Assembly (NCBI GenBank): GCA_016188295.1
Contig: JACPIA010000009.1
Span: 1,509 to 65,508 of the forward strand
Length of the DNA: 64,000 nucleotides
Direction of reading: 5' to 3'
Source: Candidatus Vogelbacteria bacterium
GTDB taxonomy: Bacteria; Patescibacteriota; Minisyncoccia; Phycocordibacterales; XYD1-FULL-46-19
Within the stretch, counting starts at the first letter, position 1; each line of letters opens with the position of its first letter. Position numbers and translations under genes: made by a program. This document shows, one piece after another, positions 18,053-53,287 of this stretch. The notes beneath the pieces were generated by a model. It did not search any database and had not been told where the DNA came from. It saw only the letters and a list, made by a program, of their open reading frames with translations.

Positions 18053-18595
18053 CTAGTGCAATAAAACATACACCCCTAAGACGACACCAGCCAACAATAC
18101 TTGTAAACTGGCTCCTAAAATCGGCCGGCCATCCAAGCGAATTGTAGTATGAACCCATTGATGAAAGCGTTGTAATGAGACTAATGGTTCCCGACGCCAC
18201 TTAAAGTAAACAAATTGGAGCGCATCAGGTAGGGCGCCACCAATCGCTCCCATTATTACCCAAGTCCACACCGTCCAATCATAAAAACTAGCCAAAATAA
18301 TCAAAGCGCCAAGCAAACCAAGAGCAAAGTCCGTACCAATTTTAGCTAAATCGTAAATAAAAGCTTGACCCACTATAATATCATCATTAAGAGCATCCAC
18401 TTCATCGCGCGCAGCCGATGCCAATTGATAGTCCCAATGTGGGATCATATCAAGAACAAAGTGACTGGTAAACGCCAAACCGAGACCGAGCACCGGATTA
18501 GTTGGTACCAGACCAGCTACTACCGCTCCGACTGCCGCATGTGTCCCTAAAGTCATTATCAGAAATAATAACATAAAAATACCCCAAGTCATCAC
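18053..18595 (-). CDS. YdjM/DUF457-like membrane-bound metal-dependent hydrolase
   Basis: Multi-TM protein. SHFVLDMIPH resembles the YdjM SHILADMLTP motif. Confidence 0.4.
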   Translation of the reverse strand: MMTWGIFMLLFLIMTLGTHAAVGAVVAGLVPTNPVLGLGLAFTSHFVLDMIPHWDYQLASAARDEVDALNDDIIVGQAFIYDLAKIGTDFALGLLGALIILASFYDWTVWTWVIMGAIGGALPDALQFVYFKWRREPLVSLQRFHQWVHTTIRLDGRPILGASLQVLLAGVVLGVYVLLH

Positions 18596-18633: not shown

Positions 18634-18975
18634 TCAATTGAGTATGATTTTGTTGGGATCTAAAAAATGCTTTCGAAGAGTCCTCATATTCCATAGCCGT
18701 CGGTGAAACACATCAGAAGCACTAGAATTTTTTTCCCGACGACGTCTATTGAGAAAATCTATCGTGGCATTACAATGCCTGATTCGAGCGGCCACTTTTG
18801 GAGTCATTGTGGTTATTCCGTGCCTAATCAGAAAACCAAGATCTGACTCGATCCGATCATCAAGATCGTTGAGATAACCCGCCGCCTTCTCCAAATCAAA
18901 ATCGCCATTACCAAAATAGACTCCACGCTGTTTTAATTCCTCTCCGATCTTTTCGGTAAGATCTCTTCTTTGCAT
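18634..18975 (-). CDS. Hypothetical protein
   Basis: ORF with start taken at MQRRDLTEK. No recognisable domain. Confidence 0.35.
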   Translation of the reverse strand: MQRRDLTEKIGEELKQRGVYFGNGDFDLEKAAGYLNDLDDRIESDLGFLIRHGITTMTPKVAARIRHCNATIDFLNRRRREKNSSASDVFHRRLWNMRTLRKHFLDPNKIILN

Positions 18976-19091
18976 AGTAGTGATCTCCTCCGCTATTGTT
19001 AGTGAAAGACCAATATTGTTTACGACGATACAATATCGTATCATTAATGTACCGTCAAGGGTCGTAGTGGATATCCACTTGATAGTATTGG

Positions 19092-19100
19092 TGGTATAAT
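19092..19100 (+). promoter_or_regulatory. Extended -10 element TGgTATAAT 7 nt upstream of the repeat-protein ATG. Predicts a leaderless transcript.
   Basis: Sequence gtgGTATAATaattattATG read directly. No Shine-Dalgarno. Confidence 0.3.
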
Positions 19101-19107
19101 AATTATT

Positions 19108-19683
19108 ATGGCTTTACAATCAAGTACCAACAAAAGCCAACTTAATACTAAAAACATTACCAATCTTCATCCAAATGTCTGGGGTGACTTTGTCAATTTA
19201 CGTGGTAGTGTCCATGCAATTTACGGCGATGTTTCGCTCCACAAAATTACCGGCGATAGTAGTGCCATCCGTGGCAACATTACCGGTATTTTCGGCGACG
19301 TGTCTAAAATCCAAGGTGATGTTAGTAATATTAAAGGTGACGTGTCGAACATTAAGGGTGATGTCAGTAATATTTCCGGCGACCTCTCTGGTGTTTTAGG
19401 TAACGTTGGTTCTATTCGCGGTTCGATCACCAATATCCGCGGTGATGTAAGTAGATTAAAAGGCAATATTAGCGACTTGGTGGGCAACGTTGATGATCTC
19501 TCAGGTGATGTTACCAACATCTCCGGTACCGTCACTAATATCAGAGGTGATGTCAGTCGTCTCGCCGGTATTGTGACCAACCTGACCGGCGACGTCTCAG
19601 GTCTGTCTGGCAATGTTTCGGGTTTAGAAGGTGATGCCACCGGCCTCTCTGGTGACATCCAATCAATTGTCAGTAAAAAATAA
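19108..19683 (+). CDS. Heptad-repeat protein, about 22 tandem 7-residue repeats with consensus GDVSNIx
   Basis: Translation: ...IRGNITGIFGDVSKIQGDVSNIKGDVSNIKGDVSNISGDLSGVLGNVGSIRGSITNIRGDVSRLKGNISDLVGNVDDLSGDVTNISGTVTNIRGDVSRLAGIVTNLTGDVSGLSGNVSGLEGDATGLSGDIQSIV. No signal peptide. Hydrophobic V/I at fixed repeat positions. Confidence 0.7.
   Translation: MALQSSTNKSQLNTKNITNLHPNVWGDFVNLRGSVHAIYGDVSLHKITGDSSAIRGNITGIFGDVSKIQGDVSNIKGDVSNIKGDVSNISGDLSGVLGNVGSIRGSITNIRGDVSRLKGNISDLVGNVDDLSGDVTNISGTVTNIRGDVSRLAGIVTNLTGDVSGLSGNVSGLEGDATGLSGDIQSIVSKK
19225..19668 (+). repeat. Tandem 21-nt coding repeats, synonymously diversified
   Basis: Example units: ggtgatgttagtaatattaaa / ggtgacgtgtcgaacattaag / ggtgatgtcagtaatatttcc. 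Protein repeats are near-identical while DNA units differ at wobble positions. Confidence 0.7.
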
Positions 19684-19693: not shown

Positions 19694-20953
19694 TCAGTGA
19701 TTATAATCCGTTAAAAAAGCTCTTTTAAACTCATTAAAATAATCGTCTAAAATAGATTGGCGGATACGAGCGACCAAATTGACCAAAAAGTAAATATTAT
19801 GGATTGAGCCTAAGGTGGCCCCCAACATCTCTTTAGCGTGAAAAAGGTAAGCTAAATAAGCTCTAGTATATTTTTGGCAAGTGTAGCATCGGCAATCGTT
19901 TTCAATCGGTCTAAAATCCTCACGATATTGTTGATTCAAAATATGGAGCCGGCCGTGATGAGTTAAAAACGTCCCCGTGCGGGCAAAGCGGGTCGGGATT
20001 ACACAGTCAAAAGTATCAGCTCCATTTTCCACTCCATCAAAAAAATCTTCCGGTTCACCGATGCCGAGCAAATGGCGTGGCTTATTTTTAGGCAAAATGG
20101 CATTGACCCATCCCACCGCGGTACCCAAATCATCTTTATTAAATGAGCCGCCAATCCCAAAACCAGCAAAATCCATACTGCTAATTATTTTTGCCGACCG
20201 CTCCCGCAAATCTTGATGACGTCCTCCTTGGACAATCCCAAATAAACCCTGTTTATTGGCCGCCTCATTATTAATCAAATGAGTATCTAAACTACGCTTA
20301 GCCCAAGCATGCGTACGCGTCAGTGCCTCTTGTTGATACTCATAACTGGCTTGAGGCGAAGTACATTCATCAAACGCAAAAATAATATCCGCCCCTAATT
20401 TGTGTTGAATAGCCATTGAGCTCTCGGGGGTCAACCGATGTTCACTACCATCTAAATGCGATCTAAACGTAACACCATCATTGTCTATTTTTGCTAATTG
20501 ACTAACTGAATCAGGTAAATTTTGATCAGTGTAAGGATCCTCTGAGATAAAGTTGTCAAAATTTACCGGTTCAGTTTTTTTAGCCACCTTACTTACTCCC
20601 CCTTTACCAAACGCCTCACCGAGCGAAAAGACTTGAAAGCCGCCTGAATCGGTCATGATTGGCCCACTCCACTGCATAAACTGATGTAGTCCTCCGGCTT
20701 TAGCTACCAAGTCAGCCCCGGGTTGTAAATACAAATGATAGGTATTAGAGAGCACTACTTGGGCACCCGTGCTTTTTACTTGCTCCGGCGTTAGCGCTTT
20801 AACTGTCGCTTTAGTACCTACCGTCACAAAGGCCGGTGTCTCGATCTCGCCGTGAGGCGTGCTGATTACTCCGACGCGACCTAAAGTATTATTTAATTCT
20901 TTAGTGATTTTAAATTTTATAGGTTGACTCATCGATAGATTAAAGAGAACCAC
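19694..20953 (-). CDS. tgt: Queuine tRNA-ribosyltransferase
   Basis: TPHGEIETPAFVTVGTKATVK, zinc site CRCYTCQKYTRAYLAYLFH. Confidence 0.9.
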   Translation of the reverse strand: MVLFNLSMSQPIKFKITKELNNTLGRVGVISTPHGEIETPAFVTVGTKATVKALTPEQVKSTGAQVVLSNTYHLYLQPGADLVAKAGGLHQFMQWSGPIMTDSGGFQVFSLGEAFGKGGVSKVAKKTEPVNFDNFISEDPYTDQNLPDSVSQLAKIDNDGVTFRSHLDGSEHRLTPESSMAIQHKLGADIIFAFDECTSPQASYEYQQEALTRTHAWAKRSLDTHLINNEAANKQGLFGIVQGGRHQDLRERSAKIISSMDFAGFGIGGSFNKDDLGTAVGWVNAILPKNKPRHLLGIGEPEDFFDGVENGADTFDCVIPTRFARTGTFLTHHGRLHILNQQYREDFRPIENDCRCYTCQKYTRAYLAYLFHAKEMLGATLGSIHNIYFLVNLVARIRQSILDDYFNEFKRAFLTDYNH

Positions 20954-38848: not shown

Positions 38849-38932
38849 GCCGTGGTGGCGGAATTGGTAGACGCGATGGACTCAAAATCCATTGATCGCA
38901 AGATTGTGAGAGTTCGAGTCTCTCCCGCGGCA
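38849..38932 (+). tRNA. tRNA-Leu (anticodon CAA)
   Basis: Manual fold: acceptor GCCGTGG/CCGCGGC, anticodon loop CTCAAAA, long variable arm, T-arm GAGAG-TTCGAGT-CTCTC. Confidence 0.8.
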
Positions 38933-38940
38933 CTAATAAG

Positions 38941-39789
38941 GTGGAAACTAAACCTAAAATCATCGTAATTGTCGGACCGACCACTACCGGCAAAAGCGCC
39001 TTGGCCATCAAATTGGCCAAGGCTTTAAATAGTGAGATTGTCTCTGCCGACTCACGCCAAGTGTATCAAGGCTTAAATATTGGTAGTGGTAAGGTGACCA
39101 AAAAAGAAATGTCCGGTATCGTCCACCATTTATTGGACATTGCTTCGCCTAAACAACGCTTTACCGTCAGCCGATTTAAACAAGCCGGTAGTAAGGCAAT
39201 TACCCAAATTTTACAGAGTGGTAAAATACCGATCGTTGTGGGCGGCACCGGCTTTTACCTTGACACGTTAGTTAACGGTTTGGTGTTGCCAATAGTTAAA
39301 CCGAATTTAGAGTTGCGTCAATTTTTAAGTAAAAAAACCGTTACTGATTTATACCAACAATTAAAACAACTGGATCCAACTAGAGCGAAGACGATTGACC
39401 AACATAATCCCCAGCGTCTCATCCGGGCAATTGAGATTGCCACCACCTTAGGTAAAGTACCTAAGATCAAAGTGAATCTTAATTATGATCCTCTATTTAT
39501 TGGCCTAGATTATCCGGACGATATTCTAAAACAAAAAATAAATAAGCGTCTCAGAGAGCGCTTAAAACAAGGATTGGTAGCTGAGGTTAAAAAACTCCAC
39601 CAACAAGGTCTGAGTTGGAAACGGCTTGAGGAATTAGGTCTGGAGTATCGTTCGGTAGCCCGTTATCTGCAAGGCAAAATAAATAAGTTAGAATTGGTGA
39701 CTGAATTAGAGTCCGCTATTTGGCATTTTGCTAAGCGCCAACGCACTTGGTTTAAACGAAACAAAGATATTAATTGGCTAATTAGTTAG
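38941..39789 (+). CDS. miaA: tRNA dimethylallyltransferase
   Basis: IIVIVGPTTTGKSALAIKLAKALNSEIVSADSRQVYQGLNIGSGK (P-loop). Confidence 0.9.
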   Translation: METKPKIIVIVGPTTTGKSALAIKLAKALNSEIVSADSRQVYQGLNIGSGKVTKKEMSGIVHHLLDIASPKQRFTVSRFKQAGSKAITQILQSGKIPIVVGGTGFYLDTLVNGLVLPIVKPNLELRQFLSKKTVTDLYQQLKQLDPTRAKTIDQHNPQRLIRAIEIATTLGKVPKIKVNLNYDPLFIGLDYPDDILKQKINKRLRERLKQGLVAEVKKLHQQGLSWKRLEELGLEYRSVARYLQGKINKLELVTELESAIWHFAKRQRTWFKRNKDINWLIS

Positions 39790-40113
39790 CTTATCGAGTG
39801 AGCCACGCAAATCGCTTTTAGCAATCTCCTGCTCCAACTCTCGTACATGCTTAGCTACTACATCGTCAACAGCTTCTTTTTGCTTTTCTTCCAAATCACG
39901 CCAATATTCCTTTTGATGTGTAATAAATCTCTCTAACTCTAACGCTAAATTACCAATCAATTGGTGTTCATTAGTTAAAGCGGTTAGCAAGTGATCAAGA
40001 GTACGCTCCGACATCTCGGCTAAATTATCTAAGATAGCCACCTTAAGCCCTTCAGTTAAAGGCGATACTGCTAATAGTTCCCCAATTTTTTCTGCTTTTT
40101 GTTCGATAGTCAT
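39778..40113 (-). CDS. Small helical hypothetical protein
   Basis: 111-aa ORF, E/K-rich, overlaps the miaA stop. Distal gene behind the 563-aa protein. Confidence 0.35.
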   Translation of the reverse strand: MTIEQKAEKIGELLAVSPLTEGLKVAILDNLAEMSERTLDHLLTALTNEHQLIGNLALELERFITHQKEYWRDLEEKQKEAVDDVVAKHVRELEQEIAKSDLRGSLDKLTN

Positions 40114-40122
40114 AATTTTATT

Positions 40123-41814
40123 TTACATTGTCTCCCAGCCATATTTGACAACATTTTTAACTGCTTTTTTAGTTGTCCAAATACCAGCTTTAATCGCTAC
40201 CTTTTTAAGGGAAATAACTGTCCCGGGCGATAATTGTCGATCTGAGATTTTACCACTGATACCCCACTCTTTAACCCCGATACCATTCTCTTTAGCCGCT
40301 TCTTTAGCTGCTTCTAAAATTTGAGCATCGGTTGGATTGTTCACCCCATGATGAACTAAATAATTTTTAGTGATATTCCAGAGATTGCCATCTGTTAGTA
40401 AGACTTCTTCCTCGATCGATAATTCGGGCAACGATAAAGATTCTGGATCGGCGCGCTTACCGCCCAAAAAGTTACTGACCCAATCTTTGACTTTACCACC
40501 ACTGGGAATATTAGAACTATCAGAAATCGCCGGAACTTCACTGGTACCAACCGCCTGCTTTATGACATGTTTAGCCCCTTGACCAATTGCTGTCTTAACT
40601 TGTCTACCGCCCCACCAAGCGCCAACCTTAACACTACCGACATAAGTTACCACACCGATGGCCACACTGGCCAAAGCGGCCTCAATGCCCGCCGCGACAT
40701 AACGCTTATACCACTCCTGATCTAAATTTTTACGGAAAAGTTGTTGGTGATTGATTAAATCACGAGTCATCTGACTGTGTCGTAAACTCTTAATCGAACC
40801 TCTGATTTCATCCTCGATTTGAATCAAACGTTCAGGCGTCAAAATCAACTGGCCACGAAAATTGGTCTTGCCTAAGAATTTAGTCTGAACTTCATTTAAC
40901 GATTGAGATACAATCCGGTCTTCAAACGCCTGATTAGTTTGAATCTTTTCGCTCGAGACTAATTGCGATGTCGCTTCGTATTGGTCGGCAGTAATGAAAT
41001 CACCTTCGTTCAAAGTTTTTAGAATACTATTCATTCGCTCGGCTTCGTGCTGGGCCTCATCATGGGATAATCGTCCCGATTCTTGGCGAATAGAGGCAGA
41101 TTGATTACTAAGATCCTGAGCCAACTCGCTCGTCTTAGTCCTAAAACCTTCAGCCTGATGCACCTCCCAAAAACCAAAAGTGCTTAAGCCCTTGATCCGC
41201 TCCCGAGCAAAACGCCAAGCATTAACCGCTTTCTCGGTAATGAGGATTTTGCCTAAATCTACACCAGCCTCCTTAAAACGTCGCCAAGCTAATTGTTGGG
41301 CTGTTTCGCCAGCAAGTTTAGGGGGTTTCGATTCGTCTTCCGGCGTCCAGCCAAGTTCTAACCCAGTTTCATTGTCTTTCGCTTCCTCACTTATTGATAA
41401 TTCACTATCTCCAGACTCGTCTTCTAATCTAGGACCTAAGATTAGACCGCTATCCTCCGCCTCGTCTGATATCGATTCCGCGACCGATTCTCCGGTTGGC
41501 AAATTCTCCGGTGGTGGACTTTGTCTAGCCATCTCAGCCAATTGTTGTTGCCAAGCTAATTCTTCTGCTTTTGCTTTTTCTCCTGCTTCTGCTTTCGCTT
41601 TCGCTAATTTTCTTTGTTGGGCCTGCTCTTTTTGAGTTAATACTTCGGTCTCACGATAAATTAGACCTGCCTTATTTTTAGAACTACCAGTAAAACCAAA
41701 TCTTCTAGCCTTATCTTGGTCACCTTGATCAAATCGAGGTGGTCCAGCTTTTGTTTTTCCCACAAACCTTGATTTTGGTTTTGGTCCTAACCTTGGCTTT
41801 TCAAACTTACGCAT
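40123..41814 (-). CDS. Large hypothetical protein with basic K/A-rich N-terminal region and one TM helix
   Basis: Start moved to MRKFEKPRLG (41814). The longer ORF to 41976 would overlap tRNA-Trp. KAKAEAGEKAKAEE repeats, TM VAAGIEAALASVAIGVVTYVGSV. Confidence 0.45.
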   Translation of the reverse strand: MRKFEKPRLGPKPKSRFVGKTKAGPPRFDQGDQDKARRFGFTGSSKNKAGLIYRETEVLTQKEQAQQRKLAKAKAEAGEKAKAEELAWQQQLAEMARQSPPPENLPTGESVAESISDEAEDSGLILGPRLEDESGDSELSISEEAKDNETGLELGWTPEDESKPPKLAGETAQQLAWRRFKEAGVDLGKILITEKAVNAWRFARERIKGLSTFGFWEVHQAEGFRTKTSELAQDLSNQSASIRQESGRLSHDEAQHEAERMNSILKTLNEGDFITADQYEATSQLVSSEKIQTNQAFEDRIVSQSLNEVQTKFLGKTNFRGQLILTPERLIQIEDEIRGSIKSLRHSQMTRDLINHQQLFRKNLDQEWYKRYVAAGIEAALASVAIGVVTYVGSVKVGAWWGGRQVKTAIGQGAKHVIKQAVGTSEVPAISDSSNIPSGGKVKDWVSNFLGGKRADPESLSLPELSIEEEVLLTDGNLWNITKNYLVHHGVNNPTDAQILEAAKEAAKENGIGVKEWGISGKISDRQLSPGTVISLKKVAIKAGIWTTKKAVKNVVKYGWETM

Positions 41815-41846
41815 ATTTTTGCTTTTTATTATACCACAATAATAAG

Positions 41847-41918
41847 CGGGCCCACCCCGACTCGAACGGGGAACGACGGTTTTGGAGACCGCTGTTTTAC
41901 CATTGAAACTATGGACCC
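41847..41918 (-). tRNA. tRNA-Trp (anticodon CCA)
   Basis: Manual fold: acceptor GGGTCCA/TGGGCCC, anticodon stem GCGGT/ACCGT, loop CTCCAAA, T-arm CCCCG-TTCGAGT-CGGGG. Confidence 0.75.
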
Positions 41919-41938
41919 AGACAAAGTTAGTATGACAC

Positions 41939-41968
41939 AAAAATAGGCTGTCCTCCAGCCTATTTTTT
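41939..41968. terminator. Bidirectional intrinsic terminator (A5-TAGGCTG-tcctc-CAGCCTA-T6)
   Basis: Hairpin flanked by an A-run and a T-run. Overlaps the rpmG stop codon. Confidence 0.45.
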
Positions 41969-42118
41969 CGACTCATTATGGGTAGTTTGCTTGCGACACC
42001 ATCTGCAGTATTTTTTAAGCTCGATTTTACGCTCCACCCCTTTGCGATTTTTACGGCTCCAGTAATTGGTCCGCTTACAGGTTTTGCAGACTAGCTTGAT
42101 TAGATTATCTTGCGACAT
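41960..42118 (-). CDS. rpmG: 50S ribosomal protein L33 (C4 zinc-ribbon type)
   Basis: Own translation: MSQDNLIKLVCKTCKRTNYWSRKNRKGVERKIELKKYCRWCRKQTTHNESKK. Matches L33 (C-x2-C...KYC-x2-C). Too short for the ORF track. Confidence 0.8.
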   Translation of the reverse strand: MSQDNLIKLVCKTCKRTNYWSRKNRKGVERKIELKKYCRWCRKQTTHNESKK

Positions 42119-42238
42119 ATATAGTTATTTATTAGATACTCGACTACTATACCTTATCACTTCTAAAAAAACAATATTCAAAATAAAAAGTCCCGACCAC
42201 CTCAACTTTAGGCGACCGGGACCAAGATTAACTAAAAA

Positions 42239-43276
42239 TTAATAGCGACTAGCCCAGAGATTAAATTCCTGAAGCTCGTCACCTAAGACAGTGATAACCA
42301 CTTTGTCGTGGCCGGCTGGCAAGGAAACCCAACTTTGCCCCGACGAGACATTGGTCGCAACAAGCGGCCCATCACCTGTCTCGGTCCATAACCGAATCTC
42401 TAATTGCAGATATGGCTCGGTTGAGAGGAATAAATTTCTCCCCCCTAGTCGAGCCCAATAGACCTTAGCTGGCAATAGGACGCCATTCCGTTCCACCATT
42501 CCGGTGACTTCCTGATGATAGTAAGAAACATTATCAGTAGTTGGTTCAGGAAACAAATCACTGACTTGACCAACTAAAGATATACTGATCAGTGACTCTG
42601 TGGCTGGCGCAGGATTAGTGATCATGCCCACTTGGTACCGTTCGCCAGTACGAGCATTACTGATCTCATACCGTTGGTTTGGCGTCAATGGATCATACCA
42701 GACATCAAAACCGTGTTGGTAGTCATCATAGAAGTAAGTCCCGCCATTAAAACGGAGCACTATTTCGGACCCAGACACATCAACAGGTGGCTCGTAAGCC
42801 ACAAATTGATTTTGCCATGCAGGCTGTAACTGAATGATCAACGGATCGCCCGGTGCCAGTACTTCTACCTCTGGCATCTGGCCGTAGGCGACGAAATCCC
42901 AACCTTTATCATAAGCATAGAGATTGAGATTAAACTTAGTGGCTATCCCCAGACTATTGGTCGGCAGACCCGATAACGGCTCGTCTTTAAGATCAACCAC
43001 GATAACCGGCGGTTGCTTATCGACTGTCACCTCAAGGTAAGACACTTCGAGATTGTTGTTGAGTTGGAAGTAGCCGTGAACATATTGCCTGTTTCCGTTG
43101 TCGAACAATCGGCCGAAAGAAAAATCACCGGCATATTGAGTGATAACGCCATGCGTCAGAAAGGCGTTAGCCGCTCGCTCACTGTTAACCATAGATACCG
43201 ACTCTTGAGTAGATGCTTGAGCCGAAATGATCAACATCATTACCATCGTTACCATCATTTTCAATAGCTTCATCAC
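42239..43276 (-). CDS. Secreted hypothetical protein
   Basis: Signal peptide MMKLLKMMVTMVMMLIISAQA, then 320 aa of beta-rich sequence with no motif I recognise. Confidence 0.5.
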   Translation of the reverse strand: MMKLLKMMVTMVMMLIISAQASTQESVSMVNSERAANAFLTHGVITQYAGDFSFGRLFDNGNRQYVHGYFQLNNNLEVSYLEVTVDKQPPVIVVDLKDEPLSGLPTNSLGIATKFNLNLYAYDKGWDFVAYGQMPEVEVLAPGDPLIIQLQPAWQNQFVAYEPPVDVSGSEIVLRFNGGTYFYDDYQHGFDVWYDPLTPNQRYEISNARTGERYQVGMITNPAPATESLISISLVGQVSDLFPEPTTDNVSYYHQEVTGMVERNGVLLPAKVYWARLGGRNLFLSTEPYLQLEIRLWTETGDGPLVATNVSSGQSWVSLPAGHDKVVITVLGDELQEFNLWASRY

Positions 43277-43479
43277 TATTCTCCTGTGGTCACCAAACGA
43301 TGAGTCGTGGTAAGGCTAAAACCAACAGCCGCCAATTTACTGACCCGTTCTGGCACGACTGGCGCCGGAACGGTTAAAACATTGATCGTCGCGGTCGGTG
43401 TCAAATCGGGCTGAAAAAATCGGCCCCAAACAAATACCATCAAAAACATCGTTAAACCACCAACCAGCCACCATTTCAT
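43276..43479 (-). CDS. Small membrane protein
   Basis: 67 aa, one TM. Stop overlaps the downstream gene's start (ATGA). Confidence 0.35.
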   Translation of the reverse strand: MKWWLVGGLTMFLMVFVWGRFFQPDLTPTATINVLTVPAPVVPERVSKLAAVGFSLTTTHRLVTTGE

Positions 43480-43591
43480 AATTTCATTCTCCTTAATTTA
43501 CAAGGCACTAACTGAAAATAGGCCCCATGACCTATTAACCGTACTGTCTTAGAGTATAGCAAATAGTTGACGATATGTCAAGGTATAAGGT

Positions 43592-43643
43592 GCTACATTA
43601 CCAGCTTCGGAGGCCGGCGTTCTATCCATTGAACTACAAGAGC
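43592..43643 (-). pseudogene. Truncated tRNA-like fragment: 5' two-thirds of a tRNA with a CCG (Arg-type) anticodon, no T-arm
   Basis: Minus-strand read GCTCTTG-TA-GTTC-AATGGATA-GAAC-G-CCGGC-CTCCGAA-GCTGG folds as acceptor-5', D-arm and anticodon arm. No T-stem or acceptor-3' complement follows. Confidence 0.3.
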
Positions 43644-43700
43644 AAATTAAACACGTCCTTGATCATCTTGACCAGGGACGTGCGTTATAGCATTAAATCT

Positions 43701-44369
43701 CTATGCGACTAGACGGCCAAAACAAAGCCCAGAGGCTTGTCGTTGCCTTGCTTTACAAAAAGCTTGTCGGGCCGGCTCATTAAGATGACTTAACTTCTCC
43801 GGCAAAGGATGGTCATATGGACCGCAGAATTCCGTACGAGAGTTCCAATACACTCGATTAGCCTCAATTACCAAATAATGTTGCGTAATAGCGATATTTG
43901 ATCGTGAGGTGATTGCTGATCGTCTAGCACCAAGTCGAGGAGCAATCGCTACTCGGACATACGGAACTCTGGCATTGAGATAAAAATGTCCGCTGATCGG
44001 CAACTCCTCGATATCAACTGACGGGATCAGGGGTTTAGACAAGGCATCCAATGGGTGACCAGTGGTGTCACAAACTACCACCGCCTCACCTAACATAAAT
44101 TGTCCACCGCCATATTCCATCTCCCAAACAAAAAAATCGACCTCATGACGAATGATTGGCGGGATGTTAAAAATACACCCACCGCTACTAGGTTTTAACA
44201 ACACCACGGCAAATCTTTTTCCGGCTCCAACCGAATAACCTCCCGCTATTAAAGCTCCGATGATTGATTTTTTTTTGGGAAATCTGGCTAGTACCACTGT
44301 CCGACCCTCCAGCTTAAAGACCAAAATTAACCAACTTCTATCATAACACCAGACTAATTGATTCCACAA
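43701..44369 (-). CDS. Hypothetical 222-aa protein between tRNA-Tyr and the tRNA-like fragment
   Basis: ORF with no motif I can assign. Gly-rich P-loop-like segment GALIAGGYSVGAGKRF. Followed by a 10-bp hairpin (43655-43686). Confidence 0.45.
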   Translation of the reverse strand: MWNQLVWCYDRSWLILVFKLEGRTVVLARFPKKKSIIGALIAGGYSVGAGKRFAVVLLKPSSGGCIFNIPPIIRHEVDFFVWEMEYGGGQFMLGEAVVVCDTTGHPLDALSKPLIPSVDIEELPISGHFYLNARVPYVRVAIAPRLGARRSAITSRSNIAITQHYLVIEANRVYWNSRTEFCGPYDHPLPEKLSHLNEPARQAFCKARQRQASGLCFGRLVA

Positions 44370-44411
44370 GGGATTTGATTGTGCCTACCCTATCAAGTTC
44401 GATTTCCTTAC

Positions 44412-44497
44412 TGGTGCGCCGGGTTGGATTCGAACCAACGTAGCCCGAAGGCGACAGATTTACAGTCTGTTGTAATTGACCACTCTACCACCGACGC
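44412..44497 (-). tRNA. tRNA-Tyr (anticodon GTA), CCA encoded
   Basis: Manual fold: acceptor GCGTCGG/CCGGCGC, anticodon stem ACAGA/TCTGT, loop CTGTAAA, long variable arm, T-arm GTTGG-TTCGAAT-CCAAC, 3' CCA. Confidence 0.8.
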
Positions 44498-44507
44498 ATG
44501 TCCACGA

Positions 44508-47183
44508 TTATGCCACAGCGTGCGTGGTTTTGCCACGACGCTTAGGTTTAAAGCTTTTTTGGAGCTCTAGGTGAGGTACGCCATCTTTAATCGTCACCAA
44601 CACTTCCCCACCCCCTTCTACCTTGCGGGCAATAATAAACTCGGCAATCGGATTAAGTAGTTTGGTCTGAATTAGACGTTTAAGCGGCCGAGCGCCATAC
44701 TCCGGCGTATAGCCCTCGCGAGTCAAGTAAGGTAACACCTCTGGTGCAATTTTAAGCGCGATCCCTTTTTTAACCAAACGTTCACCAACCAGTGACAACT
44801 GGAGCGAAACAATCTCTTGAATTATCTCTGATGATAACGGATTAAAAATAATGATGTCATCTAAACGATTTAAGAACTCGGGACGGAAATAATTTTTAAG
44901 TGAATCACTGATCCGCTCTTTAACTTCGTCAAAGTTGGTCGTCTTTTCATCACCGACTCCAAAGCCCATTTTTTGGAATTTGGTAATAAATTCACTGCCA
45001 ATATTGGAGGTCAAGATAATAATCGTATTTTTAAAGTTAACCACTCGACCCTTAGAGTCGGTTAAACGCCCATTATCTAGCACTTGTAAGAGCAAGTTAA
45101 AAATCTCAGGATGGGCCTTCTCGATCTCGTCGAACAAGAGCACCGAGTATGGCCGATGTCTCACTAACTCCGTAAGTGAACCGCCCTCCTCATAGCCCAC
45201 ATAACCCGGCGGAGAGCCGATTAATTTAGACACCGAATGGCGTTCCATATACTCGGACATATCCACCCGGATGAGTGACTTTTCATCATTAAAAATAAAT
45301 TGAGCTAAAGTTTTAGCCAACTCTGTTTTACCAACTCCGGTAGGGCCGAGAAAAATAAATGAGCCAATTGGTCGATTAGGATCGGCAATCCCGGCGCGCG
45401 AGCGGCGTACAGCATCACTGATTTTTTTAATCGCCTCATCTTGGCCGCGGACCCTCTGATGCAACTCACTTTCTAGTACCAACAATTTTTTAGACTCCTC
45501 CTCTAGCATTTTAGTCACCGGGATACCGGTCCAGCGCGCCACCACTTTAGCGATCTCTTCATCCGTTACCTCCTCTTTTAAAATTTTGCGGGCACTTTGC
45601 AACTTTTTAAGCCTAGCGTCTTTAGCCCGCAACTGCTTTTCTAAATCAGGAATCCGACCATAACGGATCTCGGCCGCTCGCGAAAGATCAGCTTTAGCCT
45701 CCGCTTGAGTCGCCTCTAAACGAGCAATCTCTAAGCCAGCTTTGACTGCTCGGATCTCGGTAATAATCTGTTTTTCATTCTTCCATTTGAGCTCTAGCTC
45801 ACTGGTCTTCTCTTTCAAATCACCAATTTCTTTTTCGATTTTTTTAATTCTAGACTTACTACTTTTATCGTCATTTAAATCAACTTCTTTTTTAAGGGCT
45901 TCCCGCTCCACCTCTAAGCGCATAATTTTACGCTCGGATTCCTCAAGCAGACTCGGTTTATTCTCTAATTGTAGACGGAGCGCCGAGGCGGCTTCATCAA
46001 TCAGATCAATCGCTTTGTCCGGCAAGAAGCGATCGGTAATGTAACGGCTCGAGAGGTTAACCGCCGCAATAATCGCATCATCAGTAATATGTACCCCATG
46101 ATGAAGTTCATATTTTTCTTTTAAGCCGCGCAAAATAGTGACGGCATCATCTACTGTCGGCTCCTCCACAATTACTGGCTGAAAGCGTCGCGTTAACGCC
46201 TGATCACGCTCGATGTATTTTTGATACTCTTTAATAGTAGTGGCACCAATGGCCCGCAAAGTGCCTCGCGCCAAAGCTGGCTTAAGCATATTAGAGGCAT
46301 CAATCGCTCCCTCGGCTGCCCCAGCTCCCACAATAGTGTGGAGTTCATCGATAAATAAAATTACTTTATCCTCCGATTTTTCAATCTCCTTCATAATATT
46401 TTTGAGCCGTTCCTCAAACTCACCACGATACTTGGTGCCAGCCAACAACATCCCCAAATCAAGTGAGACTAATTCTTTATCTCGAAGCGATTCAGGCACA
46501 TCACCCTTAGCAATGCGAATAGCAAGCCCCTCAACTATGGCCGTTTTACCAGTACCAGCCTCACCAATTAACACTGGATTATTCTTAGTCCGGCGCGATA
46601 AAATTTCCATCACTCGACGAATTTCATTCTCGCGACCAATTACCGGATCAAGCTTATCATTTCGCGCCAAAGTAGTTAAACTGCGAGTATATTTTTCTAA
46701 AGCTCTAAATTTAGGTGAGTCATCAATAGTACCTTGACCGGAACGGAGATCCTCCAACACTCGCAAGACATTAGTTTGATCAACTCGAAAACGAGTCAAG
46801 ATCTCCTTAGCGCCACTTGGTGTATCGAGTAAAGCCAACAATAAATGCTCGGTCGAAACAAACTCGTCCGCTAAATTGCCGGCCATTTTAGCGGAGCTAT
46901 CAAAAATTTTGACTAACTCGGGGGTTAAATAAATTTGGTACGACGGCGCCACCACTTGACCACTATCACCACTATCAATGTGCTCCAGTAAATGATCAGT
47001 CAGCATTGTCGTGTCAATCTCTAGTCTATCTAAAATAGAAATAACCATACTCTCTTCTTGTAAGAGCAGAGCGGCCAAAAGATGTAGCGGATTAACCTGA
47101 TTTTGGCCACGTTCTAGCGCCAACTCATGAGCTTTGCGGATGGCCTCACGGGCCTTCGTGGTGAAGTTTTGAAAAGGTAACAT
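44508..47183 (-). CDS. clpB: ClpB-type AAA+ disaggregase (Clp_N repeats, two AAA modules, long M-domain)
   Basis: [15 protein letters not shown] and [15 protein letters not shown] Walker A boxes, coiled-coil middle domain, 891 aa. Confidence 0.9.
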
Positions 47184-47203
47184 ACTCTATTATTTTACAA
47201 CTT

Positions 47204-47995
47204 TTATTTTACAGAGTCAATTAGGATATTGAGATATTTGCCCGGGATAGCAGTACCGGTACCAGAGACCATCCCTACAATCTCACCTTTAAGATTAAGG
47301 AGTGGGCCACCAATAGTTTGAGTGGTGGCCGCGGTCGTTAACAATGAAGTTAAACTAGTGCTTGCCACCCCACTAGTAACGCCAGTAATATTACCGATAG
47401 CAACAATCGGATCCGTCGCCGCGGCCCCTAGGGCTACTACCATTTGACCGATAGTAGTATCTGCCCCCGAAACTGTAGGCCAAGTAGAGATATCACCCTT
47501 AACGGTGATCGGTTTGTCTAAACGGAGCACCACTAGACCGGTTTTAGTATCAACATTAACTAAAGTAGCACTAGTTGAGGAGCCTAATGAGGATGAAACT
47601 TCGTAATGGAAACCCCGATTAGGAACTACTAAATTGGTAGTAATCACTAAATTGTTTTTATTAAGAAACAGAAAGCCCGTGCCTTGTTTATTTTCATCTC
47701 GACTATAAGTAGACTTGGCCTCAATATGAACTACGCCACCCGAAGCTTGGTTGATCGCTTTGATCAGCAAATCCTCACCAGTTACTATTAATGGCACCTC
47801 TTTAACCGTTCCAACCGCCGCCGGGGCTTGGACTACCTTTTCGACTGTGCGCTCGATTACTTGATTGATGGTCTGAGTAACCCCCTGCGGACTTTGGTCC
47901 ATCAGCGACACAGTAACGATCCCAGTCGCAATTGAAGTGATAAAACTGACTAACAAAGCCAGCATGATAATTTGATTTTTATTAAGCTCTTCCAT
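47204..47995 (-). CDS. Membrane-anchored trypsin/HtrA-like protein lacking the catalytic His and Ser
   Basis: GTGFLFLNKNNLVITTNLVV aligns to HtrA GSGFII...TNxHVV with His replaced. QTIGGPLLNLKGEIVGM aligns to GNSGGPLxNxxGEVIGI with Ser replaced by Ile. Confidence 0.45.
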   Translation of the reverse strand: MEELNKNQIIMLALLVSFITSIATGIVTVSLMDQSPQGVTQTINQVIERTVEKVVQAPAAVGTVKEVPLIVTGEDLLIKAINQASGGVVHIEAKSTYSRDENKQGTGFLFLNKNNLVITTNLVVPNRGFHYEVSSSLGSSTSATLVNVDTKTGLVVLRLDKPITVKGDISTWPTVSGADTTIGQMVVALGAAATDPIVAIGNITGVTSGVASTSLTSLLTTAATTQTIGGPLLNLKGEIVGMVSGTGTAIPGKYLNILIDSVK

Positions 47996-48051
47996 GTCAC
48001 CTTACTATACTTTATTTATTCGGATTTTGTCCACTAAAGCCAATTTGGTAT

Positions 48052-49146
48052 TTATAATTTAGGCTGTTGGCGCAGTTTAGTCACGACAAGAGCAGACACC
48101 CGCGCCACTCGATCAATATCACTGGTACTCGTCTTAGTATCTAAAGTAATCCTAACCGTACTCTCGGCCTGCTCTCGATCTCCACCTAAAGCCAGTATAA
48201 CATGGCCCTCGAAGTGGCCGTGATTATTACAAGCACTGCCGGTGGAGATGGCGATCCCTTTTTGATCAAGCTCCACCACTAATTGCTCGCCTGAAACACC
48301 GGCTACCGACACATTAATATTATGCGGTAAGCGTTTAACCAGATCGCCATTTACCATGACTCCCGGAATGGCAATCAATGATTTAATTAATTTATCGCGT
48401 AATAATGTTAATTTTTTAGTCTCGATCTCGCGTTTGCTATTCCATTTGACTAAAGCCTCTACGCCGGCAACAATAGCCGAAACATTCTCGGTCCCCGAGC
48501 GTAAACCAAACTCTTGACCACCGCCAAGCAACAAGGGTTTAAGTGGCGTACCGTGGCGGACATATAAAACTCCCACCCCAGCCGGTCCACCAACCTTATG
48601 AGTGTTTAAAGTCATTAAATCAACGCCCAGATCATTTACTTTTAAATTTAAAAAGCGGCTCGCTTGACAAGCATCAGTGTGAAAATACGGCGTGCTAATT
48701 TTATATTTATTTCTATGCGCTTTAATAATTTTACTAATTTCTTTAAGCGGTTGAATGGTGCCCAACTCATTACTGGCGTAAATTACCGACACTAATTTAG
48801 TCTCGCGAGTTAATAACTTTTTAAATTGTTCTAAATCCAGCAAACCTTTTTTAGTGACCGGCACTATTACAGCCTGTCGCGCTAAACCGGGCTCACGGAT
48901 AGAAGCATGTTCAATCGCACTGATCAAAATACCGCCAGTAAAGCTATTGATTACTGTATTATTGCTCTCGGTGCCACCGCTGGTAAAAATAACCTCATCG
49001 GATTTAACACTAAGCAAGCGAGCCACTTGAGTACGCGCTTTATTTAAAGCCATGCGCGCCATCCCCCCTTCCTGATGAATACTCGAGGGGTTAGACGCAC
49101 CAGCGGCGATATCCAGATATAGACGCTTCATCTTGGGACTTATCAT
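48052..49146 (-). CDS. Cysteine desulfurase (class V aminotransferase, IscS/NifS family)
   Basis: FTSGGTESNN, PLP-lysine region NTHKVGGPAGVGVLYV, active-site Cys in STGSACNNHG. Confidence 0.85.
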   Translation of the reverse strand: MISPKMKRLYLDIAAGASNPSSIHQEGGMARMALNKARTQVARLLSVKSDEVIFTSGGTESNNTVINSFTGGILISAIEHASIREPGLARQAVIVPVTKKGLLDLEQFKKLLTRETKLVSVIYASNELGTIQPLKEISKIIKAHRNKYKISTPYFHTDACQASRFLNLKVNDLGVDLMTLNTHKVGGPAGVGVLYVRHGTPLKPLLLGGGQEFGLRSGTENVSAIVAGVEALVKWNSKREIETKKLTLLRDKLIKSLIAIPGVMVNGDLVKRLPHNINVSVAGVSGEQLVVELDQKGIAISTGSACNNHGHFEGHVILALGGDREQAESTVRITLDTKTSTSDIDRVARVSALVVTKLRQQPKL

Positions 49147-49152
49147 AGTATA

Positions 49153-49620
49153 ATGAGAGATATGTTGCCACTCGAAGGCCCCTACATTTTAATTTACGCT
49201 TTAATTTTAATCGTGGTGATTTTAATTAGTTGGATTGTTTATTTAGAGCATCGACTCAATCGCTGGTGGCGTGGTAAAAAAGCCAGTGATTTAGAGAGTG
49301 TGATGATTGCCATTGGCGGAGCGATTGATGATTTTGAGACCCGGCATGGCGTGATTAATGAGCAATTAATCGACATTAACCGTCGTCTAAAAAAGAGTGT
49401 CCAAAAAGTTCAGACCTTACGCTACAACCCTTTTCGTGATCAAGGTGGTAATCAAAGTTTTACTACCGCTCTCATCAATGAAGAAGGTGACGGCGTGATA
49501 ATCTCCAGTATTTACTCTCGCGATAAAGTCAGTGTCTACAGCAAACCAATCCGAGGACTCTCCTCGGAATATGAATTAACTGATGAAGAGCGTGAGGTTT
49601 TAGAACAGACGAAGAAGTAA
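49153..49620 (+). CDS. DUF4446-like membrane-anchored protein
   Basis: N-terminal TM. RYNPFRDQGGNQSFTTALINEEGDGVIISSIYSRDKVSVYSKP resembles DUF4446 proteins (recalled from memory). Confidence 0.4.
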   Translation: MRDMLPLEGPYILIYALILIVVILISWIVYLEHRLNRWWRGKKASDLESVMIAIGGAIDDFETRHGVINEQLIDINRRLKKSVQKVQTLRYNPFRDQGGNQSFTTALINEEGDGVIISSIYSRDKVSVYSKPIRGLSSEYELTDEEREVLEQTKK

Positions 49621-49667
49621 ATTAATCTTTACCTTTAGGGTGGAAAATGGTACTGTGGGAACGCTGT

Positions 49668-51191
49668 ATGACTAAATCCGCCCCTAAAACTGAAGTGGCA
49701 ACCAAGCGCCCACCGGTGGTAGTAATTATGGGTCACGTTGATCATGGTAAATCGACCTTACTTGATTACATCCGCAAAACCAATGTGGTCGCTAGTGAAT
49801 CTGGCGGAATCACTCAGCATATTAGTGCTTATGAGGTTAAACACCAAACAGCGGAAGGTAAGGAGGAATTGATTACTTTTTTAGATACACCCGGCCACGA
49901 AGCATTTGAGTTGATGCGTACCCGCGGTGCCTTTATCTCGGATATTGCAGTCTTGATTGTCTCGGCCGAAGAGGGAGTTAAAGCCCAAACCATGGAGGCA
50001 ATTAAATCAATTAAAGCAGCCAATATCCCTTATTTGGTGGCGATCAATAAAATTGATCGCCCCGGTGCTAATCCGGAGCACGTTAGACAAGAACTCGCCG
50101 AAAAAGAGGTTTATGTTGAGAGTTATGGTGGTCAAATACCGGCGGCCGAAATTTCAGCTAAAGTAGGCACTGGCGTTAATGAATTACTCGATTTAATTTT
50201 ACTCTCAGCCGATTTAACGGATTTAACCGGAAATAAAAACAGTAACGCGACCGGTTTTGTGTTAGAGACTCATATGGATCCAAAGAATGGCGGCACAGCG
50301 ACTTTGGTGATTAAAAACGGTACGTTAAATTTAGGCGACTTTGTCGTGGCTGGCAGTACTGTCACTAAACTCAAGAAAATAGAAAACTATAACGGAGTGA
50401 TGGGTAAAAACTTTACTTTCTCCGCTCCAGTTAAGGCCTTTGGCTTTAGTGAATTACCACCGGTTGGTGCAACCTTTGCTAGTTTTGGCGATAAAAAAGA
50501 AGCGGAAGTGGCGATGGTAGCCAATAAGCAAACACCAACCGTGCGCCAATTAGCCGACAATACTAACAGCGAAACAGCGACTATTATTCCGGTGATTTTA
50601 AAAGCGGATGTAACCGGCTCATTGGAGGCACTGGAGAAGGCAGTACGTGCTCAAGCCAGTGGCAACGTTGAGATTAAAATTTTAGCCACTGGTATTGGAG
50701 CGATTAATGATAATGATATTAAATCAGCCAGCGCTTCAGACCAATCACTGGTTTTAGGTTTTAGAGTCAAAATTGAAAAGGGGGCTAAAGATTTAGCTAA
50801 GCGCTTTAATTTAATTGTTGAGACCTTTGATATCATTTACAAATTAACCGAACGCCTAGCTGAATTGGTGGTCGCCCGCACTCCGCGAGTATTGGTGGAG
50901 GAGACGGTGGGGAAAGCCAAAATTTTAAAGCTCTTTGGTAAAACTAAGGATCGCCAAATTGCCGGTGGCCAAGTGTTGAGTGGTAAAATCTTGCGCGGTC
51001 GGGAAGTTAAAATTCTACGTCGTGATTTTGAGATTGGCCGAGGCCGGATTGTCGAATTGGAACAACAAAAAACCAAAACTGCCGAGGTGGCTGAGGGTAA
51101 TCAATTTGGCTCGATGATCGAGTCGCGTATCGCCTTGGCTATGGGCGACACTATCGAAGTATTTGATAATGTGGAAAAAGTGGCGGAATAA
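49668..51191 (+). CDS. infB: Translation initiation factor IF-2 (short form starting at the G domain)
   Basis: [31 protein letters not shown]. Start taken at MTKS; the ORF is open from 49647. Confidence 0.85.
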
Positions 51192-51197
51192 GGCATA

Positions 51198-51488
51198 ATG
51201 AATACGGCCAGCAACAAACGCAAACAAGCAATCATGGCTGCCAGTGCTGAATTTTTAACACGGGTCAGTGGTCGGCAATCGTTGATTACCGTGACCGATG
51301 CTGACGTCTCGCCTGATGGTCGTAATGCTACCATTTACATCTCGGTATTACCGGGAAGCGCGAACAAGCAAGCACTGGAGTTTTGTAACCGGCAATTGAG
51401 TGACTTGCGCGAGCACGTTGGTGAGCGGGTACGGTTGCGGACACTCCCCCACTTTGAAGTTGCACTTGATCCAAACATCCAATTATAA
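51198..51488 (+). CDS. rbfA: Ribosome-binding factor A
   Basis: 96 aa: ...LITVTDADVSPDGRNATIYISVL...LRTLPHFEVALD. infB-rbfA synteny. Confidence 0.65.
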   Translation: MNTASNKRKQAIMAASAEFLTRVSGRQSLITVTDADVSPDGRNATIYISVLPGSANKQALEFCNRQLSDLREHVGERVRLRTLPHFEVALDPNIQL

Positions 51489-51491
51489 TAA

Positions 51492-51566
51492 GGCACGGTG
51501 GTGAAATGGTAACACTGCGGTCTGCAAAACCGCCATGCGCGGGTTCGATTCCCGCCCGTGCCTCCA
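51492..51566 (+). tRNA. tRNA-Cys (anticodon GCA), CCA encoded
   Basis: Manual fold: acceptor GGCACGG/CCGTGCC, anticodon stem GCGGT/ACCGC, loop CTGCAAA, T-arm GCGGG-TTCGATT-CCCGC. Confidence 0.8.
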
Positions 51567-51571
51567 GAATT

Positions 51572-52060
51572 ATGAATCGCAAGCGAAGGTGGACCTTACC
51601 ACAACTAACTGATGTAGTAAAAAGTGTTTACAGTTTAAGACAAGTTTTAAGTAAGTTAAACCTAAAACCAACCGGCGGTAATTACAATCAAGTCAAAAAG
51701 TATATTTTAGAGTCAAAATTGGATACTAAACACTTTAAGGGTAAAGCTTGGAACAAAGGTTTGTGTGGAATTGGAAAACCAATATACTCACTGAAAGATA
51801 TCTTAACAGTCGATAGTAGCTATCAGAGCTATAAACTCAAAAATCGGTTGTTTAAAGCTGGACTTAAACAACCTAAATGTGAAATATGTGGTTGGTCTAA
51901 AAAATCAGTCGATGGACGTACCCCAGTTGAACTTGATCACATTAATGGTAATAATAGAGATAATCGGATAATTAATCTGAGAATATTGTGTCCTAACTGC
52001 CATAGCCTACAATCAACTCATCGTGGTAGAAATAGGACTATAAAAAAGCCGGGGTGGTGA
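51572..52060 (+). CDS. Free-standing HNH endonuclease (homing-endonuclease-like)
   Basis: Starts 6 nt after tRNA-Cys and ends 13 nt inside tRNA-Leu. CEICGW...VELDHINGNNRDNRIINLRILCPNCHSLQ (HNH, Cys4-type). Low-GC coding. Confidence 0.7.
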   Translation: MNRKRRWTLPQLTDVVKSVYSLRQVLSKLNLKPTGGNYNQVKKYILESKLDTKHFKGKAWNKGLCGIGKPIYSLKDILTVDSSYQSYKLKNRLFKAGLKQPKCEICGWSKKSVDGRTPVELDHINGNNRDNRIINLRILCPNCHSLQSTHRGRNRTIKKPGW

Positions 52061-52425: not shown

Positions 52426-52530
52426 GAAGCGGCACTTGCCGCTTCTTGACTTTTATGGTCTGATATGCTATCCTTGGATGAAATCCAAGCATGGTGCTTA
52501 GATAAGTTGAACCTTGAAAAGGAGGCAAAT

Positions 52531-52800: not shown

Positions 52801-52811
52801 GGAGGATGACG

Positions 52812-53286: not shown

Positions 53287-53287
53287 C

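Follow-up and report, generated by a model that had tools for sequence, protein, structure and literature searches.

The 64,000-nucleotide stretch analysed here, called the window below, belongs to a Candidatus Vogelbacteria contig (JACPIA010000009.1) and carries on its forward strand, at positions 19108..19683, a gene taken from the list of open reading frames (ORFs) that starts with ATG and encodes a repeat protein of 191 amino acids, followed by a stop codon. This protein has a non-repeat N-terminal segment (residues 1–25, 19108..19182) and, as judged from the ortholog alignment, a basic C-terminal tail, SKK, which together with the stop codon spans 19672..19683. Between them, residues 26–188 (19183..19671) form an array of 23 units of the type G-[DN]-[VI]-[ST]-x-[IL]-x, defined by register and periodicity, which runs without interruption in a single register and in which Gly opens 23 out of 23 units. 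All the units are heptads except for one of nine residues, GDVSLHKIT (residues 40–48, 19225..19251), recognised in the ortholog alignment as a conserved "+2" irregularity, whereas the three most alike units (GDVSNIK, GDVSNIK, and GDVSNIS) were located by Tandem Repeats Finder at 19313..19374. An earlier description of the locus, made from the letters alone (hereafter, the sequence-only reading), had proposed about 22 heptads from around residue 40; the heptad repeat was borne out, but its extent had to be corrected to 23 units from residue 26. The start given there, position 19092, is the first base of the promoter element TGGTATAAT, the ORF itself beginning at 19108.

The periodicity of the protein is strong, with a residue identity at lag 7 of 0.386 compared to 0.089 ± 0.021 in 2000 shuffled versions (maximum 0.163), a difference of about 14 standard deviations. 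Identities at lags 14, 21, and 28 were 0.33, 0.30, and 0.30, respectively, lower than that at lag 7, and therefore no superperiod exists. Ahead of the array, a conserved motif, Q-x-N-T-x-N-[VI]-T-x-L-H-P-x-[VI]-[WF], leads straight into the first G-D unit, with LHPNVWGD as the entry sequence of the window protein and GDIQSIVSKK as its C-terminal sequence. No hydrophobic segment is present in the N-terminus, MALQSSTNKSQLNTKN, and nowhere in the protein does a hydrophobic stretch exceed three residues; therefore, it has no transmembrane segment and, as already claimed in the sequence-only reading, no signal peptide. The protein lacks Cys, is rich in Gly (15%), Ser (14%), and Asn (9%), and has an isoelectric point of 5.8 and a net charge of −2, two values that ruled out the idea of a DNA mimic suggested by its periodic Asp residues.

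When one genome of each prokaryotic species was scanned, a 191-amino-acid ortholog with 84% identity was found in a metagenome-assembled genome (MAG) of Candidatus Saccharibacteria (L006), at a locus with the same upstream neighbours as in the window (pyruvate kinase, a SIMPL protein, a membrane protein, and a small divergent ORF). Another Saccharibacteria MAG (L007) encodes an ortholog of 140 amino acids (53% identity) flanked by a different neighbour pair, a Patescibacteria MAG (L008) encodes a 131-amino-acid relative, and a scan of metagenomes provided 26 further loci. In an alignment of 12 orthologs with 49–84% identity, the array was gap-free save for a single block of seven units (51 residues), in phase with the repeat and missing from short-form orthologs of 140–142 amino acids, which contain 16 units. 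This single in-phase indel means that recombination of a block of units has occurred at least once. It was also the only variation in repeat number, a point that the sequence-only reading had proposed to check, as 23 units are fixed in the long-form orthologs. The alignment contains 45 invariant columns, with Q11, N13, L20, and H21 present in 12 out of 12 sequences, and within the units Gly occupies position 1 in 99% of cases, V/I occupies position 3 in 81% (90% if Ala is included), and I/L/V occupies position 6 in 98%. Individual units retain their own identity among orthologs even at 50% overall identity, and this includes the nine-residue unit, found at the same place in all the long-form orthologs as GDVS[IL]HKI[TK]. 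At the other end, a conserved ELLKKK sequence of the orthologs overlaps with the last unit and the SKK tail.

Comparison of the sense frame with that of L006 yielded 0.095 nonsynonymous substitutions per site (dN), 1.6 synonymous substitutions per site (dS), and a dN/dS of 0.06, with 23, 15, and 92 differences at codon positions 1, 2, and 3, respectively. The guanine-plus-cytosine (GC) content of the gene (44.4%) is close to that of the window (43.7%), which ruled out a recent horizontal acquisition. The start codon is preceded by an extended −10 element, TGGTATAAT (19092..19100, forward strand), read from the sequence as a leaderless-type start, with a spacer of 7 nt (aattatt) in which no Shine–Dalgarno sequence was seen. 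A −10 box ends 6–9 nt 5′ of the ATG in all 12 orthologous loci, which are of the Saccharibacteria type, as TATAAT in eight, TAGAAT in three, and TACAAT in one, with the TGn extension in nine of the 12, and no Shine–Dalgarno sequence is visible in the printed upstream sequences of these loci; the distant relative in L008 has AGGAGG in place of the −10 box. In related loci, there is a divergent gene pair about 35 nt apart, each gene with its own extended −10 box. Taken together, the low dN/dS, the gap-free orthologs, the conserved −10 box, and the window-typical GC content indicate that this is a real gene, which is old, static, single-copy, chromosomal, and under strong purifying selection.

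The leaderless-type promoter noted in the sequence-only reading was thus present right before the ATG and retained in 12 related loci, but it is not special to this gene, since a TAnAAT box ends 5–9 nt before the ATG of 15 long ORFs in the window. Matches to TGNTATAAT in the window number eight, versus 3.4 expected. Further starts of the TAnAAT-ATG type were found at 12102, 25662, 32475, 36408, 49162, 54068 (all on the forward strand), and 10085, 17998, 25587, 38791, 40113, 47183, 58586, and 60765 (all on the reverse strand); several of them carry the TGn extension, and for most of these ATGs the ORF list gives a start at the same position. To judge from this pattern, starts of the leaderless type seem to be usual throughout the source genome.

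No model in Pfam, NCBIfam, or PADLOC accounts for the window protein. Pfam yielded 24 matches at E ≤ 10, and the Pfam and NCBIfam matches correspond to coiled-coil families (LPP, Baculo_PEP_C, DUF1664, NPV_P10, and SlaB). The KOW2_Spt5 model (PF23284) reached 35.2 versus 28.9 bits only by summing four repeat stretches, none of which had E ≤ 0.001 alone, and was rejected; the NGN domain was not among the Pfam matches of the protein. A search of 5.8 billion protein clusters with word seeding detected 103 matches at E ≤ 1e-3; those with source names come from metagenomes, Parcubacteria, and a Micrarchaeaceae archaeon and are labelled as hypothetical, save one that bears a generic JGI label. An exhaustive HMMER search of 1.84 billion representatives detected 4045 at E ≤ 1e-3, of which 551 reached E ≤ 1e-10. 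Of the 244 retrieved proteins, 165 contain at least six strict units, and the consensus of the family is G - D72/N28 - V74 - S67/T33 - G34/N20 - L50/I43 - x (frequencies in percent), with spacings between anchors that are overwhelmingly multiples of 7. We defined a "Gly-anchored heptad" family by the presence of at least six consecutive units G-[DN]-[VIALC]-[ST]-x-[ILVM]-x and of the entry motif H-P-x-[VIL]-x-G-D, and the window protein has 23 such units and the entry LHPNVWGD. A longer form of the entry motif, Q-x-N-T-x-N-V-T-x-L-H-P-x-V-W-G-D-F, is common to the window protein and to the retrieved proteins P0149, P0172, P0173, P0146, and P0129. On these sequence criteria, the window protein is a member of a large unannotated family, which occurs in Patescibacteria, in at least one protein whose source is named as Candidatus Micrarchaeaceae, and in many uncultured phages. 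No description of it was found in the libraries and literature searched, and literature searches for the motif, for heptapeptide repeats with a beta-helix, and for heptads of Saccharibacteria returned nothing relevant.

The phage members constitute a subfamily of about 110 amino acids, to which 33 of the 103 matches belong, with an N-terminal MKKxLxKI...YHYxxG hairpin and a C-terminal DDCEITxEERxxGVxIxDL motif, the latter sought as D-x-C-x-[IL]-[TS]-x-x-[ED]-R-x-x-G-[VI]-x-[IV]-x-x-L; neither terminal motif is present in the window protein. Their contigs are phage-like and their genes lie in early or recombination regions, with contexts that include RecT/YqaJ/HNH next to an integrase, DUF2800/ParB_N, and, in podovirus MW202691, the vicinity of an SSB gene. 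When phage-type members were compared by tblastn with 50,697 deposited phage genomes, only the uncultured podovirus MW202691 and weak matches to fibres were detected, and no PADLOC model matched four phage-type members or the window protein. In several phage or virus-like members, Cys replaces Val at core position 3 (GDCSSLRGDCSSLYGDCTGLSG...), giving rise to a regular Cys array; these are the ORF at 5929–6330 of L013 (podovirus MW202691), P0006, P0107, and the ORF at 1674–2249 of L033. Two of them, P0006 and the L033 protein, are encoded in the same 177.9 kb contig (L005, QMCE01000841.1), which also contains dozens of small ORFs without a Pfam match and several IS605/Cas12f-like TnpB genes, and which looks like a large virus or mobile element.

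Other architectures were also found. Four ORFs (L023 1875–3596, L025 2131–3870, L022, and L027) encode proteins of 437–579 amino acids made up nearly entirely of Gly-anchored heptads (about 55–75, with arrays of about 75 units in L023 and L025), with a Lys-rich N-terminus and a short conserved C-terminal sequence, ELFVDY(I/V)(E/D)(A/V)KEL(R/K)YGT. In P0173 (550 amino acids), the array is N-terminal and shares its entry motif with the window protein, and a signal-peptide-like segment and the Secretin_N and Secretin domains come after it in one and the same ORF; this protein is either a fusion or two genes joined by the gene caller. Finally, L034 (1978–3042) and L035 (796–1872) encode a transmembrane anchor, a stalk of about 17 G-[GDN]-V-S-[AT]-L-E heptads, each with Gly first, and a Trypsin_2 (HtrA-like) domain.

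Our leading explanation, which we put forward tentatively as nearly but not quite an even call, is that the protein forms a trimeric, coiled-coil-like rod of about 24 nm that acts as a scaffold. The gene would be constitutively transcribed from its single chromosomal copy, and the rod, parallel, alpha-helical, and probably trimeric, would have positions 3 (Val/Ile) and 6 (Ile/Leu) of the units in its core, as a and d, respectively. Asp/Asn would fall on g, Arg/Lys/Ser on e, and the invariant Gly on f, the arrangement of the G-N-I-S-S-L-Q and G-D-V-Q-A-L heptads in T4 fibritin and in the needle core of P22 gp26. The length is that expected for 163 residues with a rise of 0.15 nm per residue. 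Its functional ends, used for capping or for binding a partner, would be the N-terminal motif and the basic C-terminal tail, so that the rod would work as a spacer or scaffold and not as an enzyme, and the lack of a signal peptide would make it either cytoplasmic or exported by an unknown route. We infer both the helical trimeric fold and the scaffold role; a structural role instead of catalysis is suggested by the N-terminal motif, the rigidly conserved rod, and the basic tail, and by the absence of an enzyme-like domain and of operon partners.

Several lines of evidence support a coiled coil. The conserved aliphatic positions 3 and 6 show the 3/4 spacing of the a and d positions of coiled coils. 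Searches of the PDB with the window protein, a profile of the phage subfamily, and a profile of the orthologs gave 22, 4, and 30 matches, respectively, all of them alpha-helical coiled coils and mostly trimeric, including SlaB (8qox, 2e-7), gp26 (4lin, 2.4e-7), cavin, SadA (2wpr), reovirus sigma-1, viral fusion cores, and fibritin (1avy), where the match takes in the GNISSLQGDVQAL segment. The alignments extend, ungapped and in phase, over 100–119 residues, although they are matches of heptad composition and not proof of homology. These matches provide evidence for one of the two folds considered in the sequence-only reading, an unusual Gly-containing coiled coil, whereas the other, half of a YadA-head repeat, was not supported, as neither a PF05658 match nor a 14-residue superperiod was found. 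In addition, near-identical heptads fill the stalk of P0108, a true trimeric autotransporter with an anchor and ten YadA_stalk matches, between which the heptads lie, and in L034 and L035 the heptads continue in phase from an ordinary helix-type segment (EAQAEISAL-GGDVSALE...). HtrA proteases are trimers. For helix, strand, and turn, the window protein has the same propensities as the autotransporter stalk and the SlaB coiled coil of known structure, while the power of the hydrophobic moment was equal at 103 and 154 degrees and Chou–Fasman and Pace propensities likewise did not separate helix from strand. A candidate explanation for the nine-residue unit, the "nonad" described as giving rise to a beta-layer within trimeric coiled coils (PMC4786415), was rejected, as the length fits but the residues H-K-I are off the published consensus.

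The closest parallels among known proteins include T4 fibritin (1avy/1aa0) and P22 gp26 (4lin, 3c9i), which share with the window protein the heptad pattern G-[DN]-[VI]-x-x-L-x, with a beta-branched residue at a and Leu/Ile at d, as in KGNISSLQGDVQAL of fibritin and GEIASLQTNVSALDGRV of gp26; in-phase profile alignments extend over up to 119 residues (E=2.4e-7). The matched segments of both proteins are helical trimers. However, Gly appears there about once per two or three heptads and f is variable, in contrast to the Gly of every unit in the window protein; moreover, fibritin and gp26 are virion parts equipped with folding or attachment domains at the N- and C-termini (the foldon and the gp10-binding tip), whereas the window protein has neither and is chromosomally encoded. 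SlaB, the archaeal S-layer stalk (8qox; NCBIfam NF040788), was the best match in both PDB (E=2e-7) and NCBIfam (6e-9), and it is a trimeric coiled coil rich in Ser, Thr, and Asn with propensities like those of the window protein; nevertheless, the latter scores 35 bits against a family cut-off of 700, Gly is not periodic in SlaB, and the transmembrane anchor and beta-sandwich domains of SlaB are missing from the window protein. The match to the Braun lipoprotein Lpp (PF04728, 32.9 bits versus a gathering threshold of 29.1) sums three short repeat stretches, none with E ≤ 0.001 alone, and reflects periodicity only. Lpp is likewise built of heptads and short, has Lys at its C-terminus, and forms trimers, but the window protein lacks its signal peptide and lipobox Cys. 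As for the coiled-coil stalks of trimeric autotransporters, such as P0108 and the SadA fragments 2wpr/2wpq, P0108 matches the query at E=1.2e-50 and has arrays of GNVTTLQ, GDVTTLQ, and GDVSNIA placed after a DAVNGSQLY neck motif. P0108 possesses a signal peptide, YadA_stalk and neck motifs, and a C-terminal YadA_anchor, none of which was found in the window protein, which also lacks a head and a beta-barrel anchor. Saccharibacteria are not expected to possess an outer membrane. The likeness to autotransporter stalks may be the result of convergent heptad composition and not of common descent.

A number of features weigh against the coiled-coil rod. Gly at position 1, which would be f, is the most conserved position among the orthologs (99%, entropy of 0.07 bit), whereas f is normally the least constrained, solvent-exposed position of a coiled coil. 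Gly is also found at position 5 in 20–34% of the units, a Pro within a unit is conserved in several orthologs (GLISPIAGD), and there are relatives with eight-residue H-P units. The commonest irregularity in the family is +1, whereas +3 and +4 are those typical of coiled coils. Furthermore, AlphaFold2 monomer models of two members, the window protein with an alignment of 69 sequences and the phage-type P0031 with an alignment of 33, contained no helix in the repeats and only isolated beta bridges, with low confidence (mean predicted local distance difference test scores of 56.7 and 63.7). The neighbours of the weak model found by Foldseek in the PDB (27, all with E ≥ 0.56 and none significant) were mostly beta-solenoids, with the pentapeptide helix of the SV2 luminal domain on top, and included tailspikes, pectate lyase, MinC, and a YadA-like head. 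The structure prediction recommended in the sequence-only reading was thus carried out for monomers, with models of low confidence and without any Foldseek match in the PDB at E < 0.5.

These same features are what a non-helical repeat would explain, either a beta-solenoid with two to four units per turn or a trimeric triple beta-helix, in which the invariant G-[DN] would make the turn and ladders of S/T and N/G would line the coil, as in pentapeptide and hexapeptide repeats. We consider it rather unlikely, yet the most serious competitor of the coiled coil. The conserved D/N and S/T beside the invariant Gly, the Gly found at position 5 of between one-fifth and one-third of units, the tolerance of Pro within units, the +1 bulge as the main irregularity, the beta bridges and lack of helix in the AlphaFold2 models, the beta-helical nature of most of the weak Foldseek neighbours, and the Cys at core position 3 of phage members, as in solenoids with Cys ladders, all fit such a fold. 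However, both models were of low confidence and the Foldseek matches non-significant, and AlphaFold2 is known to yield unrealistic beta-solenoids for repeat sequences (PMC11795689), and therefore the solenoid neighbours weigh little. Moreover, there is no superperiod of 14, 21, or 28 residues, the 3/4 spacing of hydrophobic residues does not produce the alternating in/out pattern of strands, and no beta-solenoid appeared among the PDB sequence matches. The Pentapeptide, Hexapep, Bactofilin, and YadA_head models of Pfam were unmatched at E ≤ 10, a result that spoke against the YadA-head or bactofilin relationship that the sequence-only reading had proposed to check and agreed with its statement that this is not a hexapeptide or pentapeptide repeat. 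Regarding the pentapeptide repeats (A-[DN]-L-[ST]-G), which form a quadrilateral beta-helix, the x-[DN]-[aliphatic]-[ST]-[G/x] pattern is present in every unit of the window protein, but their period is 5 instead of 7, and the window units have a second conserved aliphatic residue at position 6. For the hexapeptide left-handed beta-helices (LbH) and the bactofilins, in addition to the lack of Pfam matches, the period of 7 differs from their 6 or about 18.

A more speculative possibility, which we regard as unlikely, is that the family represents a new repeat fold, such as a heptapeptide solenoid or a fibre in which the helix is broken and re-capped at each Gly-Asp/Asn junction, shared as a large family by the ultra-small episymbiotic Patescibacteria and the early genes of uncultured phages and with a dedicated role, such as host takeover or cell–cell attachment. 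Phage early regions usually house genes for host takeover and anti-defence. Unless its fold is non-helical, the window protein is a variation on the heptad fibre proteins already known, and not a system that is new in kind. In case it forms a trimeric coiled coil, it would be an extreme natural example, with Gly at every f and almost no strong helix formers, and informative on what the minimal heptad code tolerates; if it is non-helical, it would be a new short-period solenoid and a warning that profile searches file such proteins as coiled coils by periodicity alone. Either way, a family of hundreds to thousands of members has been left without a description in Pfam, NCBIfam, PHROG functions, or PADLOC, and conservation of the protein is tight in Saccharibacteria, where it is probably also well expressed; the cell biology of these bacteria and the way they attach to hosts are poorly understood.

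That the array is intrinsically disordered, either as a flexible Gly/Ser/Asn-rich spacer on its own or as a segment that folds on binding a partner, seems to us clearly improbable. Its content of Gly, Ser, and Asn, the low AlphaFold2 confidence along the repeats, and a turn propensity higher than those for helix and strand would agree with disorder, but the conservation unit by unit, with 45 invariant columns and a dN/dS of 0.06, exceeds by far what disordered linkers usually show, and the aliphatic residues at positions 3 and 6 are strictly retained.

At the DNA level, near-identical unit peptides are written with differing codons, Tandem Repeats Finder detected in the ORF only 3.0 copies with a period of 21 (19313–19374, 72% matches), and the longest exact direct repeat inside it is of 12 nt. 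The sequence-only reading had taken this diversity as the signature of selection suppressing recombinational collapse. Nonetheless, over all pairs of units, identical residues share their codon with a frequency of 0.41, which is that of random synonymous choice (0.36 ± 0.03 with the codon usage of the window and 0.43 ± 0.03 with that of the gene itself). Adjacent units did share slightly fewer codons, 0.31 versus 0.42 expected from the usage of the gene (P of about 0.03–0.04), an effect that vanished with the usage of the window (P=0.29). As codon sharing matches the random expectation and dS to the nearest ortholog is 1.6, the array is old and synonymously saturated under selection at the protein level. 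Added to the constancy of 23 units in the long-form orthologs, with one ancient in-phase indel of seven units leading to the 16-unit form, this makes it very improbable, and in our view essentially excludes, that units are kept synonymously distinct by selection against recombination or that the array is a fast-evolving repeat of the contingency type. The least credible of all the explanations, a relative of the left-handed parallel beta-roll of YadA heads (Hep_Hag) in which the heptad would be half of a 14-residue repeat, is favoured by the heptad period with Gly and by one non-significant Foldseek neighbour (3s6l, E=9.5), but it is essentially excluded by the lack of PF05658 matches at E ≤ 10, the identity at lag 14 below that at lag 7 without alternation, the location of the P0108 heptads in the stalk, with its single YadA_head match elsewhere (residues 967–993), and the absence of a signal peptide or an anchor domain from the window protein.

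On the reverse strand, a 145-amino-acid ORF (19221..19658) from the ORF list overlaps the array and is not a gene, in agreement with its earlier description as an artefact. It can be derived from the sequence that a stop in the antisense frame requires a Tyr codon in the sense frame, or a His/Gln codon after a codon ending in T, and these codons are nearly missing from the array, which explains the long antisense ORF as a by-product of its codon content. In fact, the antisense ORF ends exactly at Ile38-Tyr39 (ATT TAC), equivalent ORFs recur in L006 and L008, and its dN/dS against L006 is 0.127, compared to 0.06 for the sense frame.

Regarding the neighbouring genes, a small divergent ORF without a Pfam match (18634–19044, reverse strand) is located upstream of the repeat gene and is conserved in L006 (5531–5980, motif IRxCNAxxxFxNR); its true start is likely Met24 at 18975, as judged from a GGAGGAG sequence located 9 nt upstream. 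Next to it, 18053–18595 (reverse strand) encodes a 180-amino-acid multi-pass membrane protein, also without a Pfam match and highly conserved in L006 (4897–5418). A possible synteny with the YdjM gene found beside the homolog P0172 was discarded, as the membrane protein of the window shows no similarity to the YdjM protein (E=0.88). Downstream, a convergent tRNA-guanine transglycosylase gene (19694–20953, reverse strand) has its stop codon 10 nt from that of the repeat gene, and no terminator-like hairpin was found. The TGT model matched its product in two stretches, the best of them at residues 141–418, which suggests an insertion or a divergent N-terminal part. Finally, the window includes eight tRNA genes within 38849–54053, five of them between 51492 and 54053.

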